From contig OZ059895.1 of assembly GCA_964057225.1 (NCBI GenBank), positions 13,454,001 through 13,518,000 of the forward strand: a stretch of 64,000 bases of DNA. Reading direction: 5' to 3'. How positions within the stretch are numbered: the first letter of the stretch is position 1; every line of letters starts with the position of its first letter. Under the pieces are notes generated by a model that worked only from the letters and a program-made list of their open reading frames with translations, ran no database searches and was not told where the DNA came from. A program made the translations under genes and the position numbers. Source of the stretch: Auanema rhodensis (lineage: Eukaryota > Animalia > Nematoda). Positions 16,012-64,000 of the stretch are shown one piece after another.

Positions 16012-16333
16012 TTTCAAAATTTTTTAACGATCATACCACGTTGAAAGTACGCAATGCAGCTGATTTTCAATTTTATCTCTTCCGTAACAAATGTTTTTAA
16101 TTTTCCAGCAGTTTTACTTAGATAGCTCAACCCAAGGCATCAAAATATCTTCAATCTTATTTCTATATTACAGTTATAAACCAGTAGTTTATGAACCTTC
16201 ATCTTAACTTTACTGTTTCTATCTATTTCCTATTGAAACAAACATTGTTTTAACACTATACAACTGTGAAACCTTTTTTAATTTATTGTATTTGGAGCTA
16301 ATAAGATTTGATATCATCGAGGAATTTAGATGT

Positions 16334-16699
16334 CGTTCCATTCGGAGACTCTATATATGTAACTGCAGGGTTAGAGCCAGACCGACTAGAGGAATGAGGA
16401 ATGGCACCGCCTTCCCTCATGCCCCTATTCGGGAGTTCGCCCCTTTGCAAGCCCATGGACGGTTTGCATCTAACTTAGTTAATCTTATATATTAGTCTTT
16501 GTCTTGTAAATGTAGTTTACTTCATCCTTGTGTTAATGTATTGTAATGATATTGTATTGTGTATAATAAACCTATATATTTCCTTATCTTATGTAATCCT
16601 TATGCTCTGTTTCCATACCGCTACACTTATGGAATACTATACGCGTAGTTGAGCAGACTACAATGGTCTGTTCAATATACGTAGGAGCATAATGGAACG
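16334..16699 (+). repeat. 5' LTR (366 bp)
   Basis: CGTTCCATT...AATGGAACG; identical by eye to 22954-23319; AATAAA at 16565. Confidence 0.95.
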
Positions 16700-16720
16700 T
16701 GGAGGTTCCACCTCGAACTC
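16700..16720 (+). promoter_or_regulatory. Primer binding site, tRNA-Gln
   Basis: TGGAGGTTCCACC is complementary to the 3' end GGTGGAACCT-CCA of metazoan tRNA-Gln. The following TCGAACTC matches the T arm after a short gap. Confidence 0.85.
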
Positions 16721-17681
16721 ATTTTTGTCGCAAAAACTCGCATAAAAAGTCCATATTTTGATATCTAAATTAAAACTTCCTCCACGGTTAGCAACATAAT
16801 GAGGGCGCCAACTTGTATAAGGTGCAGGTACAAGGGATCTCTCTTTTAGAGAGCTAGGACTATATAATTTTGAAATTTCACCCGCTGTCCCCACTCATAA
16901 AACCGTCTGAGTGTCCACCCTTATAATACCGTATCCTGCACCGCTTCTCTTGCATTTTTTTTGAGGACGTTTGGATCGAAATAGGGGACAATTTCACCAA
17001 ACGAAATTTTGATTACATTATTATTTGGCAACGAGGAGTTAGAATGAAATTTTGAAAGCGCACAAAGTTTAATATTTTATTGTGGTCAGGACTAGAGATT
17101 TGAAAGTTAAATTCAGGCGTAAAAGAGCATGCTAACTAAATATTTTTGCGGGAGCCGTTATTCGGTTTTTATTTTTTTTTGATTGTGAGAATAGACCACA
17201 CTAGTCCGAAAAATCCTGGCACAAATTTTATTGCCTGTCAGGTCATTTTGGCGAAAGCACATGGGCTACGGATGTTTTCTTCTCCGTAGAATGTGTCACC
17301 TTCCTCAGCTCATTTTTGTTGCTAACATCATAAGATATTCCCACACACCTACCGTAGTCTTCATATTGTAATATTCTATAAATTAGTGAAATGGTTTAAA
17401 GAAAAAAAAATTGCGTTTTATAAACGAGCTTTGGTCTCAGTCCATTAGTAAAATGAGCAATCTTTTTTAAATATTCTTGGAATCTCATTAGCATGCCAAA
17501 ATCATTCCGGAAAAGAATCGCCCACGGCTTTTAATAATCAACGTGCACATGAGCCATTTTCCCAAGGCGCACGCACTCCTTCTTTATTAATAAGCTCGAC
17601 CAAAGTTTGTGTTATGGAAAAAAAAAAAGAGAGAGAGAACAAATGAGTGAAATTAAGTATTTATTATATATAAAACAATTG

Positions 17682-18279
17682 TTAAAAGCCCCATTTAAAA
17701 TGCAACTGTCTCACAAATTCTATAGGCTGTGAGATGGGCTCATTGCTAGGCTCTAAATACTGCGAATACACTGAATCCGCAGAGGTCCTTAGCAATAAGC
17801 CCATAGGAGACTGTTCATAAAACAAATAAATTTTAAACAAAATTTTAGACATATAATCATAAAAATCATGAGGCTTATGCTCATACCAATTCCAAGGGGA
17901 TGCGATTAAATTGGGGTTTTCATACCAATGCGCACACAAATCGGTGAGGCACCATCGCCCAATAGCTGCAACCTCATCCGCTATTTCTTGCATTAGGGAG
18001 AAATTCACTAATCCCCTCCCCAGATAATGCATTTTTAAATCCTCGATAAACTAAAATTTTTTTTTTATTATTATTAATATAACATGTTTCTTTGTTTTAA
18101 CCAACCATCTTAATCATGTCTGGGTGAGGCCTATAAGCTAACACTTCGTCTTGATCATACAAGACGAGGTCAGCGTACAGCTTTCTCAAGACAAAAGTCA
18201 TTCCCGATAGACCTTCATAAGCCATTCTTTGATTTTTTTTTCCTTCTTCAGCTCTACAAATATAAAGAATCTTATGCAT
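17682..18279 (-). CDS. Antisense two-exon accessory gene of the LTR element (about 180 aa, unknown function)
   Basis: A 55-nt GT..TTTTAG intron (18051-18105) joins the two track ORFs in frame (DMIKM|FIEDLKMHY). TTTTCAG lies 20 nt before the ATG and AATAAA about 17 nt after the stop. Confidence 0.7.
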
Positions 18280-18639
18280 AAAAAGGGGACATAAAACGAC
18301 TGAAAATCTCTCTCATACTTTCAAGAATTCAATTAGAGTAAAGTATTAAGATTGAGGCTGGAAAGAGCGAAGACCAACAAAATTTATAATTGATGAACAT
18401 CTGTGAAAAAGAATAAAGAAAAGAGAATACGGTAGATAGGCGGAGCCAGATCTCAGGCCAAGATTTTAGAACTCTTTCTCATCTAATAACGATTCTCGGC
18501 GAAAGACGCCACGTCTCAATCTTCAAACTTTTCTTAATTTTCCCTATAACCGACCTGAATTTCTTGTCACTCATTCAACGTCAACATCCCCCATATAACG
18601 AAACACTCGCGGTTTTTCCAAACCAAGAGTGATTCCAAA

Positions 18640-21600
18640 GTGGCACGAAGATACTCTTCGGCCGTCCCTGCTCTATACCCTTCTGAGTCCAGTGACGACA
18701 TCGCAGTCGCCAGTCGAACCAGAAGCCGCACTCGACTCCTCAGTGTTCAGATTGAAGAGCCTGAACAAGAGGTAAAACCCAAAGTCGAGAAAACCTTCAT
18801 TCCTCGAGAAGGCACGTATTCACCTCCGGACAACACCGAGGAGGACCCTGATTTCTATATTCAGGACTACAATATTCAAACTTCAGCTTCAACTCCAAAG
18901 GTACACTCTTTTAAAAGTAATAAAAAGATTCAAAAAATTCAAAAACCAAAACAAATAACCTCTAATACTTCACCAGCCACCCCCCACCTAAACTTATCAA
19001 CTTTATCAGTTAATACTGATAACGATCTTGCATCTTCTTTTGAACTAACTCTAACACCGCAGGCATTTTCCACTCCGATAGAAAACTCACAACTTAATAA
19101 AACCTCATCTCTCACTATTCGCAAATCACCCTTATCAGTTATCACTGATAAGCTTGATTCGAAAAAGCTTGATTCTAAAAAGATTAATAAAAGAAAAACT
19201 AATACACCGCGTAGGCGCTCAACCTCTAATAATCCCGTAGAACCAAATCAGGAAATTACCGAAGTTTTGCCCTTATCACTAACTACTGATAAGTTCAAAA
19301 GTAAGAAATCTTTAACAGCTCGCTTAATAAAAGTTTTGAATTTGTCTCCAGGGGAGGTAACAACAGAACAAGTTGATAACTCTCTTCACGTATCCTCCAA
19401 CCCAACCCTTAATAAGTCAGATAGCGCTATACCCAGCTCAAGCGTTTCAATACATTCGACGCCTCAGGCAACGAGTCGAGTTATCAAACTCCCAGGGAAG
19501 CGGTTCTCCTCAGCCGCCCCTACCATTAGTTATCCAACATCTGGTAACTCGAAAAAGGGAGGTAAGAACTTAACGGCGAGAAGCTCAGGCAGTAAAGGGA
19601 TTACGTCATCTCGCACATACCCTGAGGATATACCAACCATGACGGAGACACCACGTCTTCCGGGAGCTGGTAAATCTACCATTGCGCACGCATTAAGCTC
19701 ACCTTATTGCCCCATATACGACGGAAGTCGTAACTTTAGAGATTTCGTGGCAAAGTTTAATACCTTTTCTAACGCCTTAGGCTTAGTGATGCCCGAAAGA
19801 CTAACTATTTTACCATTACTATTGAAAAATGATAGAGCAGAGGAAGCTTATTTAGAGCTACCTGACAAGGTCAGAACAGCTGGACCTTGGGTTACCCTAA
19901 TAGAAGAGTTAACATCCAAGCTGTGTCCCGAATACAATCAAGACCCTGCCCTTATCACACTTCAAAACAGCACTCAAGGCGATTTATCAATTGATGGTTT
20001 TGCACAAACGTTAAGAAACCTCAGCTTAAATGCTTTCTCTAATAGTGATACTCATAAAGATCACATTCTGAGGTCCACATTTTTGAGAGGCTTGAAAAAT
20101 ACGATACGCCCAGGGGTAATTCGAGCAAAACCCAAAACTTTTGCTGAGGCTGTTGATAGTGCTCGCTGGGAGGAATCAATTGCAAACCAAGTAGCAGACC
20201 CTCAGGCGCTATTGGTTAACGCAATTGAAAGAACTTTCCCCCCGCGCAGAAACAATGGTGGGAGAGGTATGGCAAGAGGTTATCAATCTTTTAATAATAA
20301 AAATTATCAAAATTATAATAATTATAACAATTATCATCCAAACTTTCAAAACAATCAAAATTATCATAAATTTTCAAAAAATCAAAAAGGCTGGAATTTC
20401 CAAAACCCATTTGCTAGGAACCGCAATTTTGGTGACCGCGGTCGAAATTATCAGAATCAAAATCAAAATGGGTATCAAAGAAGCCACAATGCATCACAAA
20501 ATCAAGAAATGAGCAATAATAGACAGAGAAATAACAGTACCTTTAGGGGAAATAACAACAATAGAGGCAGAGGTAGAGGCTCAAGAGTCAATAATTTGAC
20601 TCTGATATCTCCTTTGACTTTAGCCGTAGCTTTATCAGTAATCTTATCACTGGTTACAACAGCTGAAGCATACCAGCTATGTACTAAAGCTACTGGAGGA
20701 GCCCTTCTCCGTCCCCCATCTCTCCGAAAATGCTTATTACCACCAATAAAGCATATCTTACGAACAAAAGTTCATCTTTATACAAGGAATCAAACGGCAC
20801 ATGAATGGGATGCATGGAGATGCTCCAAAGAAATTCATAAAATGTGTATCAGAGACCTTTTGTTCCTTAGAGATACCAATACAACGATAGCGGAGATTGA
20901 ATATAGAGCACAAAAGAACATGACAGCTAATGACAGATATTGTGTCATAAATGACTTGCTCTATACAAAACCAACAGACAAAAAGCCACAACCCGCTATC
21001 GTAATACCACAAGAACACCCCATAATTGAGGAAATAATCAAAGTTTTTCATGAGGATCCTACAATTGCAGCACATCAAGGAATTATTAAAACAAAAGAAG
21101 CAATTCTAAGAAGATTCTATTGGACAAATATGCAGAACGACATTACTATATTCATCAAGAACTGCATTAAATGTGCTCAAAGAAAAAAAGATCCACATTC
21201 CATGACGGTACAACCAATAGGTCATTTTGAGATACCAAGCAAGCCATTTGAACGAGTCCACATGGACGTAATGGGACCATTTCCCCCTTCAAAAAGAAAC
21301 TGTACCTACGTCATTACCATGCAAGACGCATTTACAAAATGGTCAACAACAATTGCTGTACCTCAAATAACAACGGAAATCACAATTGACCGATTTCTAC
21401 GACATTTCGTTTACATTTTTGGACCACCCCATCGCTTGATCACCGATAGAGGTTCGAACTTTGTATCCAAAAAGTTCGAAGAAATGTGTACTAAACTTGG
21501 AATCAAACATGAACCAACACTACCACACCAAAAGAACTCAAATGGACAAGTGGAAAGACTTCACAGAACCCTCGAAGAAGGATTAACCCACTACTTAAAA

Positions 21601-22254
21601 GAGGACCTTAGTGACTGGGATACTGTATTACCAAAAATCACTTTTGCTATTAACAATATTCAGCACGCGACTACAGGGATTGCGCCTTACATTGCATTAT
21701 TCGGTAAAGAATGCAGAATGTCAATGGACGCTGAATTACCAGAAACGATCACCAAAATTCAAGAAATTTCTGAAGAATTACTCCAAAGAAGACCAGATAT
21801 GGACAAGAGAGACAAAATAATAAAGAACCGCATAGCTAAAAATCAAGAAAATGCGAAAAAGAAGAAAGATAGAACGCAAAGAGCACACCATAGAGACATT
21901 CAACCGGGCGACATGGTGATGACGACTATAAAATCACACCAAATCGGCCAAAAGCTTCGGAAAAGCTATGATGGACCATACGAAGTCATCAACGTAGAAG
22001 GATCAAAAGTTCAAATCAGAAATTCATCAGGAAAACTACAAGATATCCACAAAGATAACTTGAAAATCTTCTCTCCTGCTTCACAAAACATCTCTTACAA
22101 CACTCGCGCAAGATTTCGAGAAAGTCAAGCAGAAGAAGATAGCGACATCGAAATAATAGAAGTGATCAACAGGAACAACAAGGATAGCATAGATACAGAG
22201 CCAGAAGATGAAAATGAAGACGAAATATGGCTTCCGAGGAATGAAGAAGAATAA
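18640..22254 (+). CDS. Polyprotein: Ser/Thr-rich leader, Gag capsid, N/Q/RG-rich region, signal peptide plus glycoprotein stub, integrase
   Basis: Gag motifs YDGSRNF, QGDLSIDGF, FLRGL..PKTFAEA. Hydrophobic LTLAVALSVILSLVTTAEA|YQLC. Integrase HHCC, VHMD/ITDRGSNF/VER, YDGPY. First in-frame ATG is at 19639. Confidence 0.92.
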   Translation: MARRYSSAVPALYPSESSDDIAVASRTRSRTRLLSVQIEEPEQEVKPKVEKTFIPREGTYSPPDNTEEDPDFYIQDYNIQTSASTPKVHSFKSNKKIQKIQKPKQITSNTSPATPHLNLSTLSVNTDNDLASSFELTLTPQAFSTPIENSQLNKTSSLTIRKSPLSVITDKLDSKKLDSKKINKRKTNTPRRRSTSNNPVEPNQEITEVLPLSLTTDKFKSKKSLTARLIKVLNLSPGEVTTEQVDNSLHVSSNPTLNKSDSAIPSSSVSIHSTPQATSRVIKLPGKRFSSAAPTISYPTSGNSKKGGKNLTARSSGSKGITSSRTYPEDIPTMTETPRLPGAGKSTIAHALSSPYCPIYDGSRNFRDFVAKFNTFSNALGLVMPERLTILPLLLKNDRAEEAYLELPDKVRTAGPWVTLIEELTSKLCPEYNQDPALITLQNSTQGDLSIDGFAQTLRNLSLNAFSNSDTHKDHILRSTFLRGLKNTIRPGVIRAKPKTFAEAVDSARWEESIANQVADPQALLVNAIERTFPPRRNNGGRGMARGYQSFNNKNYQNYNNYNNYHPNFQNNQNYHKFSKNQKGWNFQNPFARNRNFGDRGRNYQNQNQNGYQRSHNASQNQEMSNNRQRNNSTFRGNNNNRGRGRGSRVNNLTLISPLTLAVALSVILSLVTTAEAYQLCTKATGGALLRPPSLRKCLLPPIKHILRTKVHLYTRNQTAHEWDAWRCSKEIHKMCIRDLLFLRDTNTTIAEIEYRAQKNMTANDRYCVINDLLYTKPTDKKPQPAIVIPQEHPIIEEIIKVFHEDPTIAAHQGIIKTKEAILRRFYWTNMQNDITIFIKNCIKCAQRKKDPHSMTVQPIGHFEIPSKPFERVHMDVMGPFPPSKRNCTYVITMQDAFTKWSTTIAVPQITTEITIDRFLRHFVYIFGPPHRLITDRGSNFVSKKFEEMCTKLGIKHEPTLPHQKNSNGQVERLHRTLEEGLTHYLKEDLSDWDTVLPKITFAINNIQHATTGIAPYIALFGKECRMSMDAELPETITKIQEISEELLQRRPDMDKRDKIIKNRIAKNQENAKKKKDRTQRAHHRDIQPGDMVMTTIKSHQIGQKLRKSYDGPYEVINVEGSKVQIRNSSGKLQDIHKDNLKIFSPASQNISYNTRARFRESQAEEDSDIEIIEVINRNNKDSIDTEPEDENEDEIWLPRNEEE

Positions 22255-22920
22255 CAACAAGATAATGCTACGTTATTTAAATTATTGTAACAAAATAACG
22301 ATGAATTAGAGAAAAAAAAATTAATACTAAATAACATTCAAAATAAAAATAGCATTTAATAGAGATTGAGAAAAGAAAAATAAGGCAAATTCTAAACGAG
22401 GAGATGTTATGACTAATGGTTCCAAGTTACCGTAATCCTATGCGGACTAGAGGACATTTTGACAACCATCCGAGCTCCATGTGCCTCTCCAAATAAGATG
22501 AGATAAACACTGGTAGGCGTATCAACCACAATTTCATCTTAAGTGGTAGTCTCCATTAGTAATCAAGGATTCACTCTGGGAGACATATGGAGACACATTA
22601 TTAAATCATAATCTCGGTTCAATTTAGAAATGAGTACTTCTTGAGACCATTAGTCAAAATAATAACATATTCCCATTCATTACTAGCCCCTTATTCTACA
22701 ATCTCTATTAGGAAATGCTTGAATATTAAGATAATTAATTTATGAAATTAATAATATTCTAATTCATCGTCACTTCATATTATATTGAACCCTTCTTATA
22801 AATTATTGTAATTTTGTTTGTATACTAACTAAAACTCTATCATACTATAGTTATTGTGAAGCTAAAACAATTGAACTCTAAAACTCAGTTACATATAAGC
22901 CCAAATTTTTGTTTAAAATA

Positions 22921-22953
22921 TCGCGAGGTCGCGACAATCTTTGAAAAAGGGCA
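22921..22953 (+). promoter_or_regulatory. Stem-loop and polypurine tract (GAAAAAGGG) before the 3' LTR
   Basis: TCGCG-AGGT-CGCGA, then PPT 22943-22951 ending 2 nt before the LTR. Confidence 0.75.
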
Positions 22954-23319
22954 CGTTCCATTCGGAGACTCTATATATGTAACTGCAGGGTTAGAGCCAG
23001 ACCGACTAGAGGAATGAGGAATGGCACCGCCTTCCCTCATGCCCCTATTCGGGAGTTCGCCCCTTTGCAAGCCCATGGACGGTTTGCATCTAACTTAGTT
23101 AATCTTATATATTAGTCTTTGTCTTGTAAATGTAGTTTACTTCATCCTTGTGTTAATGTATTGTAATGATATTGTATTGTGTATAATAAACCTATATATT
23201 TCCTTATCTTATGTAATCCTTATGCTCTGTTTCCATACCGCTACACTTATGGAATACTATACGCGTAGTTGAGCAGACTACAATGGTCTGTTCAATATAC
23301 GTAGGAGCATAATGGAACG
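22954..23319 (+). repeat. 3' LTR (366 bp)
   Basis: Direct repeat of 16334-16699. Confidence 0.95.
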
Positions 23320-23411
23320 ATGTAACGTAGAAAATTACATAACTAACATGAAATTGGAAAAAAAACAATAACGAGGATAAGTATGTAAATCATTGAATAT
23401 CAGGTATTTTC

Positions 23412-23530
23412 GCTTACGACCATACCACGTTGAAAGTACGCCATCCCGTCCGATCTGGCAAGTCAAGCAACGTTGGGCCCGGTTAGTACTTGGATCGGAG
23501 ACGGCTTGGGAATCCCGGGTGCCGTAAGCT
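23412..23530 (+). rRNA. 5S rRNA
   Basis: Full-length. Confidence 0.95.
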
Positions 23531-47716: not shown

Positions 47717-49051
47717 ATGGCTAAATTGATAGATTCAAAATCAGCACAAGCCCTTTTACCTAATATCAACTATGGTGATATACCTGCGTCGGCATTAGGT
47801 GTAGAGTCTACTCGTACTGTACAAGTCCCTTTGAAAAATACTTTTCTTCCTCAAGGACCATGGGAATTTGTTATAGCTCAAAATTCCAAATCATTCCTCA
47901 ATCTGAGAAGATGTTGGTTGAATGTAAAATTTAAAATTGTAACCACAAACGGTGATCCAGTACCAGACAACCTTGTTTTTGCACCATGTCAACAATTTGC
48001 TGCCAGTTTAATACATTCGTATCATTTGAAAATTGGCGATGTTAGCGTGTATGACTCTACCGTGAATCATGCCTATAAAACATATATCGAGAATATTTTA
48101 ATGTATAGCAACGATGTTAAAGAGAGCAAACTTGCCATATCAGGATATTATGCTGATAGATATATAGATAATGCATCCAGTGCTGGATTGAGAACGCGTC
48201 AAGCGCTTGTAAAAAATGGCATATTGTGTGAGATGGCTGCTCCCGTCAGTATCGACCTATTTAATCAAGAGCGACTGTTTGTAAACTATTCAAAAATGGA
48301 GCTAACTGCATATCCAAACCGTGATAACTTTTTAATTGACACTCTAGGCTGGAATAATGAAAACAAGGACACTACATTAAAGGAGGAGTTTCCAAATTTG
48401 AAAGTAGATATCAGCGATGTACATTTGCTCATTCAAGAGTTTGATCTAAACGCTGGATTAGCTATGGCTATAGAAGATAAACTCGCAAAGGATCGAATAC
48501 ACTACCCCATGACATCAGTGAAAATGCGCTCTTATTTCATAGAAGGAGGCCGCTTGGATTCACCTAATAATATATTACTCACGTCTCATACACCAAAACG
48601 TGTTGTAGTAGGTCTTGTCGGCGCACACGCTTATAATGGTACTTTTAAACATTCGCCATTCAACTTTAAACCGTTTGATTTGAAAAATATATACTTGACG
48701 CTCAACAATAGGGTAATACCTACCCGTCCTTATAATTTAGAATGGCGATCTTCCTATGCCACAGCATATATTGACATGCTGGAAGGTTTGGGACTTGGTC
48801 GTACAGATTCATCCAATGGTATTACACCAGCAATGTATAAAGCTGGTTTCACATTTTTTGTATTTGATATTAGTCCTACTGTGCATTCGTCAGAGTTATT
48901 TGATGTTATACGACAAGGTAATGTAGCCTTGAAATTGGAATTTGGTCAACAAACGCCGCAAGAGGGCTTATATGCAATTGTTTATGCAGAGTATGACTCT
49001 ATTCTTTCAATTGACAACAATCGTGCTCCATATATTGATACCAGTTTGTAA
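47717..49051 (+). CDS. Maverick/Polinton major capsid protein (double jelly-roll, PY)
   Basis: 444 aa; PKRVVVGLV..AYNG..SPFNFKPFDL, GFTFFVFD and IVYAEYD motifs; tail-to-tail with pPolB. Confidence 0.88.
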   Translation: MAKLIDSKSAQALLPNINYGDIPASALGVESTRTVQVPLKNTFLPQGPWEFVIAQNSKSFLNLRRCWLNVKFKIVTTNGDPVPDNLVFAPCQQFAASLIHSYHLKIGDVSVYDSTVNHAYKTYIENILMYSNDVKESKLAISGYYADRYIDNASSAGLRTRQALVKNGILCEMAAPVSIDLFNQERLFVNYSKMELTAYPNRDNFLIDTLGWNNENKDTTLKEEFPNLKVDISDVHLLIQEFDLNAGLAMAIEDKLAKDRIHYPMTSVKMRSYFIEGGRLDSPNNILLTSHTPKRVVVGLVGAHAYNGTFKHSPFNFKPFDLKNIYLTLNNRVIPTRPYNLEWRSSYATAYIDMLEGLGLGRTDSSNGITPAMYKAGFTFFVFDISPTVHSSELFDVIRQGNVALKLEFGQQTPQEGLYAIVYAEYDSILSIDNNRAPYIDTSL

Positions 49052-49188
49052 TGTATGTAATAAAATTCTTTAAAAGATTTAAGAATAAAATTTATTAATA
49101 CAACTATTTTAAAAATAAATACATGTACAATGATAAAATTTTATAAATACAAATATATACAAGATAAAAATTTATAAATTCAAATATA

Positions 49189-52100
49189 TTAAACACAATA
49201 ACCGTAGGGTAAAGTACTATAATCTTGAAGATAACAAAGTTTATCCATTACGACTTTAGTACTTTTTGTCATATCCATTGTGGATATGGCACCGAGTTGC
49301 CTCTTTAACAATGTCGTATTGGTTTTTAAAACCAATTTTTCTCCATCCATAACGAGTCCGCGAACCAGTCGCTCCATACTTTCAAAGTTTACCACTGACG
49401 CTGCCGTGTGGTCCAACGTCTGAAAATTATAAAATTATTTGAAAAGTCAAAGCTCGTACTTACCACTCCCTTTGCCTTTGTTACATATTTTACATCACCA
49501 GCTGCATTTACAAGTTTATAACTATAAACTTTTGCCGCTGGTGACACAAACTTGGTCATTGACCAACCATCGGGTATTTCAGAGGTTAGTTTACCTAACC
49601 ATTCACCCTTCATATCCTCAATTGGATCTGGCTCATCTAGGCATCTTTGATAAATTAGAGAATCCGTGTCTAAATAATGTAAGTTTAAATTGAATACAAA
49701 GTATAAAATTACCTGTATACACCAAATTCTTTCCAATTTTCTCCATTGCCTTATACAATAGTAGCCTTGCATGAGCGGTTGTATAGGCCGCAATAGCTAC
49801 ATTTGTAAAAGGCGGTGGTGCCAAATGTGAATCCTCTGGTACTGTTGTGCAGTACGCAACATTATCCACAATTTTGAACCCGGTGAGTTCCCTTGCAGGA
49901 TCAGTAATGATCCTACCAATTTCTGGGTCCTCAACACCAATAATCTTGGTTTGGGCTTTATCTGGTCTTTGACCCATTTTACCCCAGACACTATAAGCAA
50001 ATTTGTAATGTATTGTTTTTAAAAAGTTTACAAACCTATTTAGCTGCAGTTTGGCAATGCTACGCATGGCAGCATTCTTTTCAATTTTATTGCTCTCCAG
50101 AGCAACACCAGTGTTCTCCTCGTGCTCTTGGAGATATATCACCTGTAAAATTCTATTTAATGTGATACTTTTGTTAAAACATACCTTTTCTTCCTCTGTC
50201 ATGTTTGGCTTTGGCCAGCCCGACGCCTCTTGTTTAATTTTTATGTACTTTTGTACAAATTCTTTAAACAGGCCGCCTTGTTGCCATTCTTCCCAGTGCC
50301 ACACCTCATGCACATTAAGCACTTTATAGCCACGTTGTATGGCACACTCGAGCTCAACATGTGTCACAGTTAGATGCAGCTTTCTAGCATTTACATCATT
50401 CTGGTGCTCACATGTTACATTTTTACTTTTGACTGCACAAGTGCGGCAGTTTGTAAAAATAAGTTTACCGCCAATACGTGTGCCTAATACAGGGTACAGC
50501 AAATTTGTGGGTGCAAGCACGTCACATTTTACTAGCCCCTTGTATGGGCAACATGTCTCAAAGCTTCTGAAACCCTCAGTAATAACTTTGGGATTACCTA
50601 CAGGGTAATAGGCATCAAAAGCGGTGACATATGGATATAGTGAACAAAAGTCCACATACTCGAGCGAGTATCTATCCGAAGCTTGTGCCAAAAGCTTATA
50701 TGTCTGGGTGCGGCCACCGGTAAAGGCATCTCTAGGTGCCAAGCGTGTAACAACATTTGTTTCACGCATAAATTTCGCCATTTCTTCATTGGCCGAAATT
50801 TGTGCATTAATTTCGTGCTCCCACACTGTGGTAACACTAATGCCTTGGCTTTGAATTGCTTCAAGCCTTTTCATGGTTTTATCATAAACCTAAATTTTAA
50901 AAATTAAAATGATTAAAAAAGTCACAATTACCTCTTCCATTGTTTCACCATTTCTGCTTGGTGCTATAGCGCTCTTGTTGGTGCACTGGGGGCAACCATG
51001 GTAAATACAACCATTAATCTACAAAAATTTGCACTTTTTACATTTATTACAAATTACTCACCTCATAGCCATGATTGGCAACGGGGTCATAAGCATCGAG
51101 TAGATAGCGATGGCCATCTACTCTCACTGCAAATTCACCACCATTAAGCTTATGCATTAATGGGCGGCCCAATCCTTGTTCTAGCCATTTTATATACTTT
51201 ATGGCTATTATACTCTGCTTTTGACCGGCATAATAACCAGTCTCGGGCAGAATACCCACTTGGTTCTCTTTAATATGATTCATTTTCAGCTGTAATATAC
51301 TAGTTTTGAAAATGCTTGTATTTGAAAAAACTTGCCTGGAATAAAGAGAAACTGGCAAATGTCATACATTGTATGACAGGGTTCCAGCCAGTGGTGGCGG
51401 TTGCCAACTTCATGTAAACTTTCATACAGTTGGTTAAAATACGGACATCTGTCCTACAATATTCCAAAAGCTCTTCATCAAAATCAAACGCTCTTTGATT
51501 ACGCTCTTCATACCAAATATCGAATGAAGCTAGGTCTTCTGCTTTCATTCTAGCAGTACAATAGTACTGTTTTGGTGGTAAAGATGGCAACACTTTGCCA
51601 TAATTTATTGGGTGATTATAGAGGTAAGGAAACTGTCCTTTACTCATATCAGGTACACCAAATGCCTTGGGTAACGCTGATAGGGGTAAAGGCACTAATA
51701 AATAACTATCTTTAAAATATAAATGATTAAATTTTTGACCTCTTAAAGGCTTGACAACCATGCTTATAATCTTGGTCCCATTTAAAATTGGATCAGGATA
51801 TATTCCACGGTTTATCAGCCTAGACACCAAGAAATGTATGTCAAAGCGTGAACCATTATGCGCAATCAAAATTGCATTATCATTCTCAACAGAGTTGAGT
51901 AACCAATCAAGGAAACGATCTGTTACAGACCATTCACTATCACCTTGTTGGTACCCAAAATGGCCCTCCTTGGTTGTGCATTTTTCGCATGAATTGGCGT
52001 CTATACAACTTTCACAAAATTTATTATACACAACCATATTGGGCCATTGTTCATCTGCATATTCATGAACATTTGTACCGCTTTTTAACACAACCGTTTC

Positions 52101-54393
52101 AAAGTCATAGAATATAATCTTAAACAAGTAAGTATTACACTTGTAAAGATGTTAAATACAAACCTTGTATTTCTCTTGCCTCTTTTTTAACTGATCCTTC
52201 TTCTTGTCGTTAGGTGGTACCCAACAACAAGAGTGATCTTCAGGCTTTGTTTGCCCACACTTTTTGCAAAATTTCTCATTGCAATTGTGCGGTCTATCAG
52301 CACGCACCCTGTGATAATGATCACAGTTTTCACATGTCTGAATTTAGTCATGTTAAATTTTATATATATTTTTTAAATTACCTTAAACATTCGACATGTT
52401 TTTCTAATATGCCTGTCAAAGCATTGACGAGTTTTGAACAAAACTCTACAACTATCACATCTTATGCTACTCTCAACCACATTTTCCATCGAATTACATT
52501 TTAAGGTGTGGCATTTCTTACACTTGGCTTTACATCTATGCAACACTGTTTTGTAAGATAATTTACAGTGTTGGCATATAATACCATCAAAAACCTGTGA
52601 TCTACTACAAGTAGTAATACAGTCATAATGATTATTTCGGTAGCCTAGTGTTACCACTTTGCTAGCCGTTTCATTAAAAATACGCTGAATAGCGTACATA
52701 CGCTGTCCAGGTGGCCTAGCGTATACTACAAACTTATAGTCTGTATTACAACTTGCAATAATATTTAAATGATTTAAATTATAATTTGGTAAATGTACAG
52801 AAATACCACACCTATTTAATAAATTGATATGATGTGGTTGATTTGGCAACAAGATGTAGTTGCGACGAAGATTTTGTATCCTCCGCTTTTCAACAACATC
52901 TTCTGCTGCCTCTTCATCGGCTTTCCACATTCCCACAACTGCTGCTCTAGCCAGGCAATGAGTGTCAGTGTTCTCAATTGTGCCAGGTATTTTGAGTTCG
53001 GCATCAAAATAGAAACCAACTCTACCTTCACCAGGCATCAGGCTTGGCTGCACTGGTCTCTCATCAAACACATACATTTCAATATTCATTGCCTGGCTAA
53101 TTACAGCCTCTCGCTTTGATTGCTGCACCTTGCTGATGGCATTCATGATGGCAACGCCATCCAAATGCTCCCTTCTACGGAAATCCATAAATATGGATCC
53201 CTTTTCAAAGGATGGGTGCTCTATTGATAAACAAAATAGCGCTTTTTGTTTATCTGGCACACCACTTTCAGCAAGGCACCGATCAAGAAACTCATTAAAT
53301 AGCCGCGGCATGACAACATGCATTGGCTCATCAATGGCTTCCAAATGTGGGAACGTGAGCGATCTAACGACCACGTTGGTGAACCGACCAGTTCGTTTTA
53401 TGCGTCGGTGTGACCACTATAATACATATTTTTTATAATGGTTATACGCTTTTAATTTAAATATAAATAATTTTTGTTTATAACTTTTAATAAATTTACT
53501 TTTCTTTAAATTATTTTTATATTCTTTTATTAAAAATAAATGGCATTTGATTTTTAAATATAAAGTTTTTTCTTTTATAAACATTTGTTAATGTTAAAAA
53601 ATAAATGAAAAGGTCAAGATTGTGTTTTATTATTTTACTAGTTCAAAATGTTTGAAATATTTATAATTTGTAAGAATTCAAAATTGGTTGAAAGAAAGAT
53701 AGATGAGGAAAGATAGATAGATAGTGAGATGAAATGTAAAGATTTTAAAATGAATGCTGTTCAAAAGAATGAATATGTAAATTTCAAAATACTTGCAATT
53801 TGTTTGATAAAAGATATAGATTGAGATGAAATGTAAAGATGAGAGAGAGAGAATTTTATGAATGCAATTGAAAAAGAGAAATAAATTTCAAAATGTTTTC
53901 AAAATATGCAACTGGAGAAAGAGAAAATTTCATGTTTCAAAAGATATATTATGAAATGATATGTAAATAAAAGATCGCACCTCTATTTTACAGACATCGT
54001 TAAAAGCCGCTCCATATCCGACTTGCCCTCCACTGGTTGATGGGGTAGCGGGATCCCATTCTCTTAAAAAGAAAAAACTAATTGTTATAATTTTTAATAT
54101 CGCTTACTCATCACTGTCATCCAAGGTTATTACTTCAATAACCCTTGATGATGAGGGCCCACTGTTAAAAGTGGGTGATGTGGGCTCACAGAGCTCGATC
54201 CCACCAGCCTCGGTAAACTTTATACGTTTACTAAAAAACAAAATATATATAAAGATTCAAAGTATTGTTAAATTACCTGAGCTGATTAATCTCTTCATAA
54301 TCAAATCCTAGCTCTTCACATAAACGTTTATAACTGAAAAAAGAAAAAGTTTACAAACAAATAATCAAAAAGACACAACCTATTAGCAGCCAT
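49189..54393 (-). CDS. Protein-primed family B DNA polymerase (pPolB), about 14 exons, with an N-terminal OTU-like domain and an internal VSR-like nuclease domain
   Basis: ExoI FYDFET, ExoII AHNGSRFD, ExoIII YCRTDV, motif A DFCSLYP, motif B KLQLNS-VWGK (intron 49991-50035), motif C YTDTDS (intron 49670-49712). The upstream exons I checked join in frame to the ATG at 54393. Confidence 0.9.
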
Positions 54394-54600
54394 TGTACCT
54401 TGATATAATGAATATATCAGTCTACACATTGCTGTTGGCATTGTAATTTGTTATGTAACATGGATTTGGGTACAGCTGTCAAAACTAGCAGTTGCGATAA
54501 ACTTTAAAATAAATAAGCTTATTGAATACATCTGTTTTTATTGTCCCCATCGGATTAATTTTTGTTATTAGTTCTTATTAAATTAACTTTATGCGTTTCA

Positions 54601-55618
54601 TTGAGGTCAGCGCAACTGTTTGTTAATCTTATTGTATTTACCTTCAATGTGTGCTCTATAGAGTTATTGTATTGTTATATTAGTAAAATAAAGTTTAAAA
54701 CTAATCTTTTATTATAATTTGAAACCTTTACTTGTTAGAATAAATATAATTAATAACATTTTGTAATTTCAAAAATTAATAATTTAATGTCGTTCTTATC
54801 GAATTAACTTTCGATATGTGTTCCATTAAATTTTGGTATTTTATATCGTTCTTATCGAATTAACCTTCGATATGTGTTCCATTAAATTTTGTATTTCATA
54901 TCGTTCTTATCGAATTAACCTTCGATATGTGTTCCATTGAATTTTGTATTTCATATCGTTCTTATCGAATTAACCTTCGATATGTGTTCCATTGAATTAC
55001 CCATAACAAGTACGGTGAACAAAACGATATACATGCAAAAATTTTACTGTTCTTTAAAATAAAAACAATACAAACACAATACAATAAAAAATAAACAAAT
55101 CAAGTAAACAAACATTATTAATAAATTTAATAAATAAATAAAATTTAAAAAACAAATTTACATATTTAAATATTTAAATATTTAAATATAATTTATATAT
55201 AAAATTTAAAGTTTAAATAAAATTTATATATATAAAATTTAAATATAATTTAAATATTTAAAGTTTAAATATAATTTATATATATAAAATTTAAATATAA
55301 TTTAAATATTTAAAATTAAGATTTTTATTTTTACTTAATATATTTAAAAATAATTAAAAATATATACATACATTTAAAAGCATATTTAAATTTGATTTAA
55401 AAAAAAAAATCATGCTTTAAATCATGATTTTTAAATTTAAAAAAGGAGAATCCATGAACCATGATCCCAAAATATGATTTTAACAGCTGACGCTCAAAAA
55501 TATGTTTTTGACAGCTGACGCTCCCCAAAAGTATGTTTTTAGCAGCTGACGCCCCCAAAAGTATGTTTTTGACAGCTGTTTGGGGGCGTGGTTAGTAAAT
55601 TTTGCACGGCTCTCTACT
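54601..55618 (-). repeat. Maverick long terminal repeat, copy 1
   Basis: Shared with 58333-59178; contains 54-55-bp tandem repeats, an AT-only block and 31-32-bp subterminal repeats. Confidence 0.88.
54789..54998. repeat. Minisatellite, about 4 x 54-55 bp, with an ATCGAA-N6-TTCGAT palindrome
   Basis: TCGTTCTTATCGAATTAACCTTCGATATGTGTTCCATT repeated; 3 copies at 58522-58677. Confidence 0.9.
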
Positions 55619-55619
55619 T

Positions 55620-55796
55620 AGAACGCCTCGTCATCGTAAAGCTGTTATTCGATATTCACCATCACCGGTTCGTACACTCAAAAGTAAAAGGTCAAAGACT
55701 TTTGATACTGCCGCCGAATCATATTACACACCACGGGAAGGAGACTCACAGAATGGCCAAGGTCGTAAAAGGTTCTACATTAGATTATGGAAATGA
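55620..55796 (+). pseudogene. C-terminal remnant of a basic Maverick protein cut by the piece A terminus
   Basis: RTPRHRKAVIRYSPSP...QNGQGRKRFYIRLWK*; QxGxG motif, basic composition. Confidence 0.5.
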
Positions 55797-56820
55797 TATT
55801 TTGGCGAGCATTTATTACGATATAAAACACCCAGCTTCATATACATCAGCCAAGAATTTATTATCGCAAGCACGAAAACATGGCATTTCAAAGGTACAAG
55901 TTGATGATTTTTTGCAAGATTCTGAAACTTTTACACGACATAAACCAACCAGAATGCGTATGCAGACTAGAAAGACTAGAGGATGTGGTCGATTTCTAAC
56001 AGTGCAAGCAGATTTGGTTGATATGCAAAAATATAAAAAATTAAACGACGGCTATGCTTACATGTTGACCATGATTGATGTTTATACACGCATGTTATAT
56101 GTTAGGCCTTTGAAAACTAAAGGTGGTATAGAGGTTGCTAGTGCATTTAAAAGTTTATTCAAGAATTTTATACCAATTCAGTTGATTACTGATAATGGCA
56201 CAGAGTTTTATAATAATCATTGTGAAAAACTATTCAAAAGGTTTGCCATACTGCACAGATCTACAAGTTCACCACAAAAGGCTGCAATGGTGGAGCGAGC
56301 AAATAGAACTTTAAAAACACGCATGATGAAATATCTCTATTACAAGAATAATCATCGTTGGATTGATATCCTAGATGATTTGGTTGAAGGAATAAACAAA
56401 TCTTATAACCGCTCTATAAAAATGCGGCCCATTGATGTTAAAGCAAATATATTCATTGAAGAATATGCACCAGCTGTTAAAAGCCGCTTTAAAATTGGTG
56501 ATACTGTTCGCATAAGCAAAAATAGGCGTACTTTTGAAAAAAGCTACGAGTCTGGATATACAATGGAGCTGTTCACAATTGATGAGGTTGTAACCGGAAA
56601 CCCAACCGTGTATAAACTTGTAGATTATAATGGTGAACGTATAAAGGGAATATTCTACGAACCTGAACTTGTCTTGGCTACTAATAAAAGCAACAAGTAC
56701 TATATAGAAAAAGTTTTAAAAGAGCGTACTCGAAGCGGTAAACGTCAAGTATTTGTAAAATGGAGTGGATATCCCGACAACTTTAATGAATGGATAGATG
56801 CAGAAAATTTAAATGTATAA
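55753..56820 (+). CDS. Maverick retroviral-like integrase with C-terminal chromodomain
   Basis: QADLVD, ITDNGTEF and VERANRT (DDE); YYIEKVL..FVKWSGYPDNFNEWI. The track start at 55588 lies inside the terminal repeat, so the first ATG is used. Confidence 0.92.
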   Translation: MAKVVKGSTLDYGNDILASIYYDIKHPASYTSAKNLLSQARKHGISKVQVDDFLQDSETFTRHKPTRMRMQTRKTRGCGRFLTVQADLVDMQKYKKLNDGYAYMLTMIDVYTRMLYVRPLKTKGGIEVASAFKSLFKNFIPIQLITDNGTEFYNNHCEKLFKRFAILHRSTSSPQKAAMVERANRTLKTRMMKYLYYKNNHRWIDILDDLVEGINKSYNRSIKMRPIDVKANIFIEEYAPAVKSRFKIGDTVRISKNRRTFEKSYESGYTMELFTIDEVVTGNPTVYKLVDYNGERIKGIFYEPELVLATNKSNKYYIEKVLKERTRSGKRQVFVKWSGYPDNFNEWIDAENLNV

Positions 56821-58332: not shown

Positions 58333-59178
58333 TTGAGGTCAGCGCAACTGTTTGTTAATCTTATTGTATTTACCTTCAATGTGTGCTCTATAGAGTTATT
58401 GTATTGTTATATTAGTAAAATAAAGTTTAAAACTAGTCTTTTCTTTTAATTTGAAACTTTTACTTGTTAGAATAAATATAATTAATAACAATTTGTAATT
58501 TCAAAAATTAATAATTTAATGTCGTTCTTATCGAATTAACCTTCGATATGTGTTCCATTAAATTTTGGTATTTCATATCGTTCTTATCGAATTAACCTTC
58601 GATATGTGTTCCATTAAATTTTGGTATTTCATATCGTTCTTATCGAATTAACTTTCGATATGTGTTCCATTGAATTACCCATAACAAGTACGGTGAACAA
58701 AACGATATACACGCAAAAATTTATTGTTCTTTAAAATAAAAACAATACAAAAACAACACAATAAAAAATAAACAAAATAAGTAAACAAAATAAGTAAACA
58801 AACATTATTAATAAATAAATAAATGAAATTTAAAAACAAATTTATATATTTAAAATTTAAATATTTAAAATTTATAATTTTTATTTTTACTTAATATATT
58901 AAAAAATAATTAAAACTATATACATACATTTGAAAAAACAAATTTAAAATTTGATTTAAAAAAAAAAAATCATGCTTTAAATCATGATTTTTAAATTTAA
59001 AAAAGGAGAATCCATGAACCATGATCCTAAAATATGATTTTAACAGCTGACGCTCAAAAATATGTTTTTGACAGCTGACGCGCCCCAAAAGTATGTTTTT
59101 AGCAGCTGACGCCCCCAAAAGTATGTTTTTGACAGCTGTTTGGGGGCGTGGTTAGTAAATTTTGCACGGCTCTCTACT
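58333..59178 (-). repeat. Maverick long terminal repeat, copy 2 (same orientation as copy 1)
   Basis: Direct repeat of 54601-55618 with indels. Confidence 0.88.
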
Positions 59179-61840
59179 GACGCGCATTCTCCGTGATGCG
59201 AAAGACAGCCTTCAGTATTCAAAATTAAATTCGATATTACAGTGTCATCTGGCATTCTTGTCATTACTCCTCGTTCTAGTACCAGTCGAGGTTTTTCTTC
59301 GCATTGTTCATTATTGAACGATCGTCCGGGCGAAAATGTTGGCTCGTTTGTTGCATATGTAATGCTATCAAGTTTTTTCAATTCCTCAGAGCTCCATTTC
59401 CTATCTCGTACTGCCAACCTGCATTCTGCGGCTGGTATTTTTTCGATTCTGTCAACTGTACTGTTGTAGTCTCGAAGAAATAGGAGGTCTCTTATACATA
59501 TTTTATGAACCTCTTTAGAGCATCTCCAGGCGTCCCATTCGTGAGCTGTTTGATTTCTTGTGTAAAGATGAATTCTTGTCCGAAGCACGTGTTTTGTTGA
59601 TGGTATGGAACATTTTCTAAGGTGGAATCAGAAGGGCTCCTCCGGTAGCTTTTGTGCATAGCTGATAAGCTTCCACAGTGGTGATCAGTGATAAGATTAC
59701 TGATAAAGCTACTGCTAATGTTAAAGGAGATATTAAAGTCAAGTTATTGACTCTAGAGCCTCTTCCTCTTCCTCTTCCTTTGTTGTTGTTATTTCCCCTG
59801 AAGGGATTATTTAAGCGTTGACGGTTATCGTTTATCTCCAGGTTGCGTGATAAAGTATTATTTCTTTGATACCAATTCGAGTTAGGTTGATTTGAAAAAT
59901 TTCGACCGCGATTACCAAAATTGCGATTTCTTGCGAATAAATTTTGATAATTTTGAGGTTTTTGATAGTTTGATGAATTTTGATAATTTTGATAATTTTA
60001 ATCATTTTTATTATTGAATGATTGATATCTTCTACCGTTTCCTCGCCTACCAGTATCTCTCCTTTGTGGGAATGTTCTTTCTATTGCGTTTACAAGTAAC
60101 GCTTGAGGGTCAGCTACTTGATTAGCTATTGATTCTTCCCAACGGGCGTTATCAATAGCTTCAGAAAAAGTTTTGGGTTTTGCTCTGATTACCCCAGGGC
60201 GTATGCTGTTTTTGAGTCCTCGCAAAAATGTTGATCGGAGGATGTGATCCTTGTGAGGATCACTCTGAGAAAATGCGTTCAAACTTAAGTTACGTAGGGT
60301 TTGCGCAAATCCATCTACTGATAAGTCGCCTTGGGTGGAATTTTGAAGCGTTATCAGTGCCGGGTCCTGATTATATTCAGGGCAAAGCTTCGATGTTAAC
60401 TCTTCGATCAGTGTGATCCAAGGTCCAGTTGTCTTTATTTCATTGGCCAGCTGTGTATAAGCTTCTTCCGCTCTTTCGTTTTTGAGAAGTAGAGGCAAGA
60501 TAGTTAATCTCTCAGGCATCACTAAGCCTAAGGCATTAGAGAAGGTGTTAAATTTCGCAACGAAATCTCGAAAGTTACGACTTCCATCATACAGTCCTGT
60601 GTGAAATAGTTGAGACACCCCTATGTTAGAGGCCCCAGAAAACCCCTTCAAACTACAAAAAAAAATTTTTCAATATTGTTTTCTAAATTTATAAGGAAAT
60701 TTAGTGTTTTTTAACTATTTTGAATAATCCCTTTTGATTTAACAAAATTTGAGATTAGGAACATGTTAATTCATTAAAAAATATTCTAAAATGATTCTAA
60801 GCACAAAGCTCAATCAATAACTAAGTTTTTCCTATGGCATAGCTTCAAACAAGTAAGCTTCAGCATCTGAATCTTACTGAATATCTATGAAGATAACTTG
60901 GTTAACATACAACCAAATTCTCCCGTTCAAAAGAAAAAATGACGTTTAGTGTACTCCTAACATTCTATAAAAAAATTGTTTCTGAAGTCTTGATGAAACT
61001 TCTGAAATTCAAAAAAGAAGACTTCAAGCAGTTTATGAAAATTTCGGAGACTCCGGAAAATACTTTTAAACATAATTTTTTGATTGTTTTAAATTTTTTC
61101 TAAGTTCATTATCATTTTTAACACTCAAAATATATTTTTTCTGATTTTTTGTAGTTTGTCTGAGAAGGTATAAGGGATTCTAGTGAGTGTCCCAACTATT
61201 TCGCACAGGACTGTATATGGGGCAGTATGGAGAGCTTAATGCCTGAGCAATGGTTGATTTACCAGCTCCCGGGAGACGTGGTGTTTCAGTCATTTCTGAT
61301 GAAATGCCTTTGGGGTGTGTGATAGGTGATGTTATCACTTCACTTATTGATGCTTCTGGGTAAGTGTTCTTCTTGTCTCTGAAGAGCCACCGGTCTCTGA
61401 ATCGATTGAAGAGCTTATAACGGGAACCGCTGTTGTAGAACGAGCTTTTTGGACCTTGATAACCCTGCCAGATGCCTGAGGCGGTGTTATAGGAGTTGAT
61501 TGGGAGCTAAGGATCGCGCTATCTGATTTGTTAAGATAAGAGTTATGTGAAGCAAATCGAGGTCTTTCGGTATTGGGAGTTGTTGCTTTATCACCTGGAG
61601 ATAATTTTAAGATCTTTATCAGTCGGGCTGTTAACGATCTCTTGTTTTTGTACTTATCAGTTGTAAGTGATAACGGTGAAACTTCTGAAGCTTCTGCGGA
61701 GGGTGCTTCTGCCTCAGTGGTTACTTTTGTTCGTTTACGGGGTGTGCTGGTTTTCCTCTTATTGGAAATATTCTTTTTGAGCTTATCAGTGATGGCTGAT
61801 AAAGGAGATTGGCTGGTGTTAGCTTCGGTGAGCTTCGTAT
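59179..61840 (-). pseudogene. Decayed sister LTR retrotransposon fragment: leader, gag, longer env-like region
   Basis: Translations match the 18640 polyprotein; frameshift near 59620, stop near 61344, MITE insertion; cut by Maverick termini. Confidence 0.9.
60592..61213. mobile_element. Tc1/mariner-type MITE, 622 bp
   Basis: TIRs CAGTCCTGTGYGAAATAGTTGRGACAC and a TA duplication; removing it restores PIYDG of gag. Confidence 0.92.
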
Positions 61841-61875
61841 TAGAATAAACATACGTAGTAGAGCAGGCTAAGGTT

Positions 61876-61946
61876 AATAGAGAGCCGTGCAAAATTTACT
61901 AACCACGCCCCCAAACAGCTGTCAAAAACATACTTTTGGGGGCAAC
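61876..61946 (+). mobile_element. Maverick terminus C (71-bp stub)
   Basis: AATAGAGAGCCGTGCAAAATTTACTAACCACGCCCCC, the reverse complement of the 59178 end with one mismatch. Confidence 0.8.
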
Positions 61947-62263
61947 AGTAGAGAGCCATGCCGAATTTACTAACCACGCCCCCAAACAGTTGCTAAAAAC
62001 ATACTTTTGAGGGCGTCAGCTGCTAAAAACATACTTTTCCTCCCGAGGCAGGCTCTCGAGCCTGCGCATGGATCAAACTGCATGATTTTTTTTTAAAATC
62101 ATTTTTTAAATTATTTTTTAATGTATTTTTAAATGAATTTTTATTATTTATATATTGGTAATTGTATTTGTAAATATTTTAAAAATTATTTCTTTTTAAA
62201 TGTTTTTGTAAAATTAATTCGTTCTAAATGTAATTTTAAAATTATTTCTTTTTAAATATATTT
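61947..62263 (+). mobile_element. Terminus D of a related Maverick subfamily
   Basis: AGTAGAGAGCCATGCCGAATTTACTAACC..., followed by subterminal repeats and an AT block. Confidence 0.75.
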
Positions 62264-62564
62264 CGTTCCATGCGGACGCCTAGTGTATGTAGTTAGTGGG
62301 TTAGAGTTAGACTGACTAGAGGACTAATGAATGGCTCCGCCTTACCTCGGTTCTCTAACCGGGAGTTCGCCCCTTAACAAGCCCATGGACGGTTTGTATC
62401 TAGTTTAGTTTATCTTGTATATTAGTCATTGTCTTGTAAATGTAGTCTACTCCATTCTTGTATTATTGTAGTGTAATGTTGTTGTATCGTGTATAATAAA
62501 TCTATCCCTTCCCTTATCTTATGATATCCTTATGCTCTGTTCCCATACGCTACACTTATGAAAT
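62264..62564 (+). repeat. Diverged LTR of a sister family, interrupted
   Basis: Starts CGTTCCATG; colinear with about the first 300 bp of the 366-bp LTR. Confidence 0.85.
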
Positions 62565-64000
62565 CGTTCCATTCGGAGACTCTATATATGTAACTGCAGG
62601 GTTAGAGCCAGACGGACTAGAGGAATGTGGAATGGCACCGCCTTCCCTCATGCCCCTATTCGGGAGTTCACCCCTTTGCAAGCCCATGGACGGTTTGTAT
62701 CTAACTTAGTTAATCTTATATATTAGCCTTTGTATTGTAAATGTAGTTTACTTTATCCTTGTGTTATTGTATTGTAATGATATTGTATTGTGTATAATAA
62801 ACCTATATATTTCCTTATCTTATGTAATCCTTATGCTCTGTTTCCATACCGCTACACTTATGGAATACTATACGCGTAGTTGAGCAGACTACAATGGTCT
62901 GTTCAATATACGTAGGAGCATAATGGAACGTGGAGGTTTCACCTCGAACTCATTTTTGTCGCAAAAACTCGCATAAAAAGTCCATATTTTGATATCTAAA
63001 TTAAAACTTCCTTCACGGTTAGCAACATAATGAGGGCGCCAACTTGTATAAGGTGCAGGTACAAGGGATCTCTCTTTTAGAGAGCTAGGACTATATAATT
63101 TTGAAAATTTACCCGCTGTCCCCACTCATAAAACCGTCTGAGTGTCCACCCTTATAATACCGTATCCTGCACCGCTTCTCTTGCATTTTTTTGAGGACGT
63201 TTGGATCGAAATAGGGGACAATTTCACCAAACGGAATTTTGATTTCATTATTATTTGGCAACAAGGAGTTAGAAGGAAATTTTGAAAGCGCACAAAGTTT
63301 AATATTTTATTGTGGTCAGGACTAGAGATTTGAAAGTTAAATTCAGGCGTAAAAGAGCATGCTAATTAAATATTTTTGCGGGAGCCGTTATTCGGTTTTT
63401 ATATTTTTTTTTTGATTGTGAGAATAGACCACACTAGTCCGAAAAATCCTGGCACAAATTTTATTGCCTGTCAGGTCATTTTGGCGAAAGCACATGGGCT
63501 ACGGATGTTTTCTTCTCCGTAGAATGTGTCACCTTCCTCAGCTCATTTTTGTTGCTAACATCATAAGATATTCCCACACACCTACCGTAGTATTCATATT
63601 GTAATATTCTATAAATTAGTAGAATGGTTTAAAGAAAAAATTGCGTTTTATAAACGAGCTTTGGTCTCAGTCCATTAGTAAAATGAGCAATCTTTTTAAA
63701 TATTCTCGGAATCTCATTAGCATGCCAAAATCATTCCGAAAAAGAATCGCCCACGGCTTTTAATAATCAACGTGCACATGAGCCATTTTCCCAAGGCGCA
63801 CGCACTCCTTCTTTATTAATAAGCTCGACCAAAGTTTGTGTTATGAAAAAAAAAAGAGAGAGAGAACAAATGAGTGAAATTAAGTATTTATTATATATAA
63901 AACAATTGTTAAAAGCCCCATTTAAAATGCAACTGTCTCACAAATTCTATAGGCTGTGAGATGGGCTCATCGCTAGGCTCTAAATACTGCAAATACACTG
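62565..64000 (+). mobile_element. Second copy of the 16334 LTR element (5' LTR 62565-62930, PBS 62931-62943, leader); runs off the window
   Basis: Near-identical to 16334-17773 with scattered substitutions. Confidence 0.95.

Follow-up and report, generated by a model that had tools for sequence, protein, structure and literature searches.

The 1231-codon open frame found in this stretch of Auanema rhodensis DNA is best read as that of a young Ty3/gypsy copy of gag-env-pol type, which carries a signal sequence and the first 74 codons of an envelope glycoprotein, predicted to be of class III (gB-type), and has lost most of env together with the protease (PR), reverse transcriptase (RT) and RNase H by an in-frame deletion (probability about 0.92). 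The window, that is, the whole stretch of 64,000 nucleotides that was analysed, also holds a fragment of a sister subfamily. An earlier note on this DNA had proposed an envelope-like glycoprotein at 20590..20905, fused between Gag and Pol. The envelope is present, but it ends at 20892, and the sequence beyond is derived from pol. The fusion does run in one frame and in the order proposed, although Pol is represented by its integrase part only, as Pfam gives no match to PR, RT or RNase H. The features are as follows.

16330..16333, + strand: left target-site duplication, 4 bp (flanks compared with empty 5S spacers)
16334..16699, + strand: 5' LTR, 366 bp, 100% identical to the 3' LTR
16700..16711, + strand: primer-binding site, a 12-mer directly 3' of the 5' LTR
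18559..22254, + strand: single open frame, 1231 codons stop to stop, first Met at 19639
19639..20601, + strand: Gag, with a capsid domain followed by an N/Q-rich and RG-rich tail (Pfam, BLASTP)
20602..20670, + strand: internal hydrophobic signal sequence ending in A-X-A (hydrophobicity; cleavage site by eye)
20671..20892, + strand: predicted N-terminal stub of a class III (gB-type) envelope glycoprotein, 74 codons (identity to the sister copy and fold of the sister domain)
20884..20892, + strand: joint of the in-frame deletion, where 9 nt can be assigned equally well to env or to pol (contig breakpoints)
20893..22254, + strand: pol end, comprising a linker, the integrase zinc finger, core, GPY motif and acidic tail
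22943..22953, + strand: polypurine tract, ahead of the 3' LTR
22954..23319, + strand: 3' LTR, 366 bp
23320-23323: right target-site duplication, 4 bp (flanks compared with empty 5S spacers)
59179..61834, - strand: sister-subfamily fragment with gag, signal and 148 env residues (about 75% nucleotide identity)

The element in the 5S rDNA array

Most of the window is a 5S rDNA array, in which 49 5S genes were counted. The Ty3/gypsy LTR element (6986 bp, 16334-23319) is inserted in a 5S spacer; comparison of its flanks with empty spacers puts it about 90 bp ahead of the next 5S gene, which is at 23412. A primer-binding site, a polypurine tract and a target-site duplication are all found, as in an LTR element. 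Because these three features accompany identical LTRs, the insertion is taken to be very recent.

LTRs usually terminate in TG...CA. The ends of this element are CG...CG instead, within a 7-bp terminal inverted repeat, and the same start, end and repeat are common to all three young LTRs of the window (16334-16699, 22954-23319 and 62565-62930). The last of these belongs to a third young copy, consisting of LTR and leader, which starts at 62565 on the + strand, runs past the window end and is 97.6% identical to the first. Its host site is an older LTR (82% identity, at 62264), which likewise starts with CG. As this copy lies outside any 5S spacer, it counts against strict 5S targeting. In a contig of sequencing run X1, the 29 bases before the LTR start (22954) resemble by eye the 5' half of a reversed tRNA-Cys gene, a single case that may hint at the targeting of polymerase III genes; no tRNA gene was found within the 64-kb window. 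A literature search found no published report of nematode LTR elements that target 5S rDNA or polymerase III genes. Of all the leads, these LTR ends and the insertion in a 5S spacer are the two that did not turn up in the literature consulted, and both were observed in this window.

The capsid Met is preceded by 360 open codons that lack a Met (18559-19638), and the sister fragment has a comparable open stretch at 61344-61895. Translation may begin at a non-AUG codon here, or a spliced leader may be involved; a search of the window with a spliced-leader motif found no match. The Gag capsid matches Pfam Ty3_capsid weakly (E 0.01), and Gag aligns by BLASTP with the Gag of nematode homologues that span Gag to env at E values of 1e-19 to 1e-29. 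The RGRGRG of its tail is at 20563, and no CCHC knuckle was seen in Gag.

The 1.85-kb leader of the element contains an antisense open frame of 122 codons (17682-18312, - strand); a short AT-rich GT-AG intron, near 18050-18105, probably separates it from a further exon upstream. The open frame has no Pfam match, and Atlas gave only a hint, below 0.9, at peptidase S28; it may be the small extra open frame reportedly described by Sacco et al. 2022. Elsewhere in the window, a Polinton/Maverick-like cluster (47717-56820) contains a split protein-primed DNA polymerase B, an integrase with a chromodomain and a 444-codon open frame devoid of Pfam matches. A 236-codon open frame (2-712, + strand) is truncated by the window start and has no significant Pfam match.

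The envelope domain and its homologues

The internal signal noted after RGRGRG is present as a hydrophobic stretch that begins at 20602, and its predicted cleavage point, between AEA and YQLC, places the signal end at 20670. With a 19-residue Kyte-Doolittle mean of 2.24 it is the sole stretch above 1.7 in the 1231-codon frame, and its hydrophobicity was equalled in 3 of 1000 shuffles. No second hydrophobic anchor is found in the window frame. The cysteine-bearing domain that follows contains, as had been described, the sequon NQT (20788), together with DAWRC at 20809, and is 79% identical to the domain of the sister copy.

As the earlier note has it, the sister copy (59179-59750, minus strand) repeats this junction and has a longer domain, which measures 148 residues. 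This copy is not an in-frame fusion today, since its signal and cysteine domain lie in different frames (5-nt gap near 59627), and its gag has a stop at 59998-60000 and a 624-nt insertion. Over 94 aligned codons of the two copies, 45 are identical, 35 differ synonymously and 14 change the amino acid; this excess of silent over replacement changes indicates that the region was under purifying selection. The element that interrupts the sister gag has inverted ends of 30 nt. On either side of the whole fragment is an inverted arm (59087-59179 and 61946-62038, about 93 nt each), the arrangement to be expected had a DNA transposon captured the gag-env piece. Contigs of runs X8 and X11 extend 795 and 230 bases past the sister end at 59179. 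Both window copies have lost the part of env that would hold the anchor.

The window domain alone has no match in Pfam, PDB sequences or Atlas. The env domain and Gag-env likewise gave no match in word-indexed protein searches, and neither Gag-env in metagenome contigs nor Gag-env or env in viral contigs was found. An unindexed phmmer search with the sister domain gave 15 matches (best E 2.3e-25). Nine of the ten homologues looked up are named nematode proteins, from the genera Caenorhabditis, Auanema, Pristionchus and Heterorhabditis. Downstream of the domain, Pfam detects Monjiviricetes_fusion in five and Glycoprotein_B in seven of the 15 homologues. A Gag family is found upstream in six of the 15, and a protease family downstream in three. 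A hydrophobic signal precedes the first cysteine in nine of ten homologues examined, the tenth beginning inside the signal. A strong hydrophobic anchor follows env in seven of 15, the other homologues being partial sequences, and in all four homologues that reach the protease the anchor precedes the protease motif. The full gag-env-pol order in one frame is seen in homologues P0006 and P0011, which, like the others, are gene predictions in which false introns may join frames. P0006 is a single predicted protein with Gag, env, anchor, protease motif, RNase H and integrase, and no RT domain.

A model of the sister domain built from a 17-row alignment (pLDDT 75.5) consists of long beta strands and one helix; a single-sequence model (pLDDT 30.8) was too poor for use. 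Comparison with viral fusogens, the check that had been suggested for this domain, returned class III fusogens by both structural methods. In Foldseek, all 34 PDB rows listed are herpes gB (best E 1.9e-5), and rhabdo-like and nyavirus glycoproteins were also matched among the BFVD viral models. In an unbiased VIA search, herpes gB comes first (Z 7.0-7.6; at best 7.6, with an rmsd of 3.2-3.8 over 117-119 aligned residues, gB residues 135-346), followed by Chandipura G (Z 5.6), Thogoto, GP64 and Bourbon, the top nine rows all being class III fusogens. Since every VIA Z is below 8, it is the concordance between these rows and the sequence evidence that carries the class III assignment. A profile search of PDB sequences with the alignment gave nothing significant. 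The likeness to rhabdovirus G noted earlier is real, as Pfam Rhabdo_glycop_FD matches three of the 17 aligned members weakly (best E 7.8e-4), but it is unspecific, given the lower Z of Chandipura G compared with gB. These comparisons support the prediction that a viral fusogen of class III is the source of the domain, which would be its N-terminal fusion domain; the fusion domain was modelled from the sister copy, and the C-terminal half of the class III protein is seen in the homologues only.

The joint between envelope and integrase

In the window the gene order is Gag, env stub and integrase, so that env stands between gag and pol. Pfam assigns Integrase_H2C2 and rve to the open frame, and no PR, RT or RNase H. 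The integrase core has the D,D(35)E residues D903, D963 and E999. Integrase is the last domain of pol, and that of the window is 30% identical to the integrase of P0011. A metagenome scan found two distant integrase loci (27% and 34% identity), and the one protein obtained when long polyproteins were sought through their integrase, from a moth, was set aside.

Contigs of four public runs were compared with window positions 18200-23300, and all four runs have a contig break at 20884-20892. Contigs of X1 and X6 leave the window sequence at 20892 and continue with bases resembling those that encode the next env residues in the sister copy, one of them for 1311 further bases, and one contig of X3 stops at 20892. 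In all four runs contigs enter at 20884 from other sequence, which extends 2447 bases upstream in X1 and X6. Since contigs leave and enter exactly at the joint, longer relatives exist, and the window copy has been deleted in frame. With P0011 as the yardstick, the gap at the joint amounts to about 1400 residues; the rest of env, the membrane anchor, PR, RT and RNase H have been removed. The window copy is accordingly not an intact autonomous errantivirus, as it lacks these three enzymes and its env is cut after 74 codons. The earlier note regarded the lineage as possibly infectious; the copy in the window is short of most of env and of all three enzymes. Nine nucleotides of shared sequence are typical of reverse-transcriptase template switches, and a template switch at those 9 nt during reverse transcription would be a likely origin for the deletion of about 4 kb.

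Alternatively, selection might maintain the deleted copy as a non-autonomous source of Gag or of a secreted stub-integrase fusion, since all 1231 codons are open and the deletion keeps the frame. We consider this very unlikely: with identical LTRs the copy is too young for decay, one third of deletions keep the frame by chance, and the joined form is absent from the listed contigs of the four runs. Even less credence is given to a collapse of the assembly at 20884-20892 that would conceal a full-length insertion in the 5S array. The element does lie within a highly repetitive array, and among the pieces listed from the four runs no contig bridges the joint. However, the coding sequence at the joint is unique and stays in frame, the 9 shared nucleotides fit a template switch, and the LTRs and the target duplication are otherwise clean; moreover, contigs drop rare variants, which makes a missing bridge weak evidence. 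A genuine deletion in a young gag-env-pol copy thus accounts best for the joint.

Relation to known elements and proposed processing

The NERVs (non-canonical nematode endogenous retroviruses) of Sacco et al. 2022 reportedly have one continuous gag-env-pro-pol frame; they are said to encode a glycoprotein of RNA-virus type and extra small open frames, and to be present in root-knot nematodes. The envelope of Atlas virus is a phlebovirus-like Gn-Gc of class II, placed after pol. Atlas virus (PMC9094657), one of the enveloped Bel/Pao elements of nematodes, resembles the window family as an LTR element that has acquired a fusogen from a virus, but its fusogen is not homologous to the window domain. 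Cer1 CERV was dropped as a counterpart because, in the available part of the source, it is described as a nuclear export protein rather than an envelope (PMC10309623).

The gag-env-pol arrangement is already published for nematodes. Chary and Hayashi (eLife 2026, PMC13524379) report that elements of Nematoda, Bryozoa and Platyhelminthes have only gB-type ENV and the order GAG-ENV-POL. They attribute the first report of the nematode layout to Sacco et al. 2022 (J Gen Virol 103:1739, PMID 35550022), in whose nematode metavirus env and pol are in flipped order. Thirty-six nematode elements appear in their supplement 1. The order, the gB-type fold and the signal before the ectodomain agree with the window family; the anchor after the ectodomain has its counterpart in seven of the 15 homologues. 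Closest among the 30 nematode ENV rows compared (supplement 2) is Clat_errantivirus_4, of the C1 cysteine group. Aligned by hand, the sister domain shares about 38 of 135 residues with this ENV, and all six cysteines align; homologue P0003, 32% identical to the sister domain, is by eye nearly the same as the printed Clat_errantivirus_4 ENV. The 12-nt primer site equals, by eye, the tRNA-Gln site of Clat_errantivirus_4 and Ctro_errantivirus_1. None of the 30 rows is near-identical, so the window family may be unlisted; the deleted copy itself would fail the 'intact' filter of that study. No mention of CG...CG LTR ends or of insertion in 5S spacers was found in the available portion.

The same paper argues for an ancient ENV acquisition and puts such ENVs in an ancient group, which speaks against a recent independent capture; the earlier note had proposed an independent one. 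A recent capture from a rhabdovirus-like virus, founding a new lineage, is the least probable of the readings weighed, in spite of the weak Rhabdo_glycop_FD matches and those among the BFVD models, because homologues of the same layout occur in the four nematode genera, gB outranks rhabdovirus G in Foldseek and VIA, and the C-terminal half of the homologues matches Monjiviricetes_fusion and gB. The 32% identity of the sister domain to P0003 suggests a place among the published C1-type ENVs of nematodes.

In an intact member of the family, one Gag-Env-Pol polyprotein would be made, with a topology deduced from hydrophobicity and gene predictions, in which frameshifts may be concealed. Gag would remain cytosolic, the internal signal would thread Env into the ER, and signal peptidase would free Env from Gag. 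The Env anchor would then stop transfer, so that the enzymes beyond it (protease, RT and integrase) would again lie on the cytosolic side and be released by the viral protease. In the window copy, which has no stop-transfer anchor, the integrase would be drawn into the ER behind the stub. Together with the missing enzymes, this suggests that the copy supplies Gag at most and has no mobility of its own.

A further reading, rather doubtful in our view, is that the family represents an unlisted and currently active enveloped retrovirus of nematodes. Host signal peptidase would cut its capsid, class III fusogen and enzymes from one polyprotein threaded through the membrane, much as happens with the structural polyproteins of alphaviruses, and its integrase would join the non-canonical CG...CG ends and aim at polymerase III genes such as 5S rDNA.

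With the layout already published, what is gained is one more member of the family and a clear case of a young copy deleted in frame. The entry mechanism of such elements is stated to be unknown (PMC13524379). The processing of a Gag-signal-Env-anchor-Pol polyprotein and cell entry by a lone gB-type protein are questions on which these elements bear; a family active now would provide material for them, which the window copy would not. The CG...CG ends and the 5S-spacer site, if constant genome-wide, could bear on integrase specificity.
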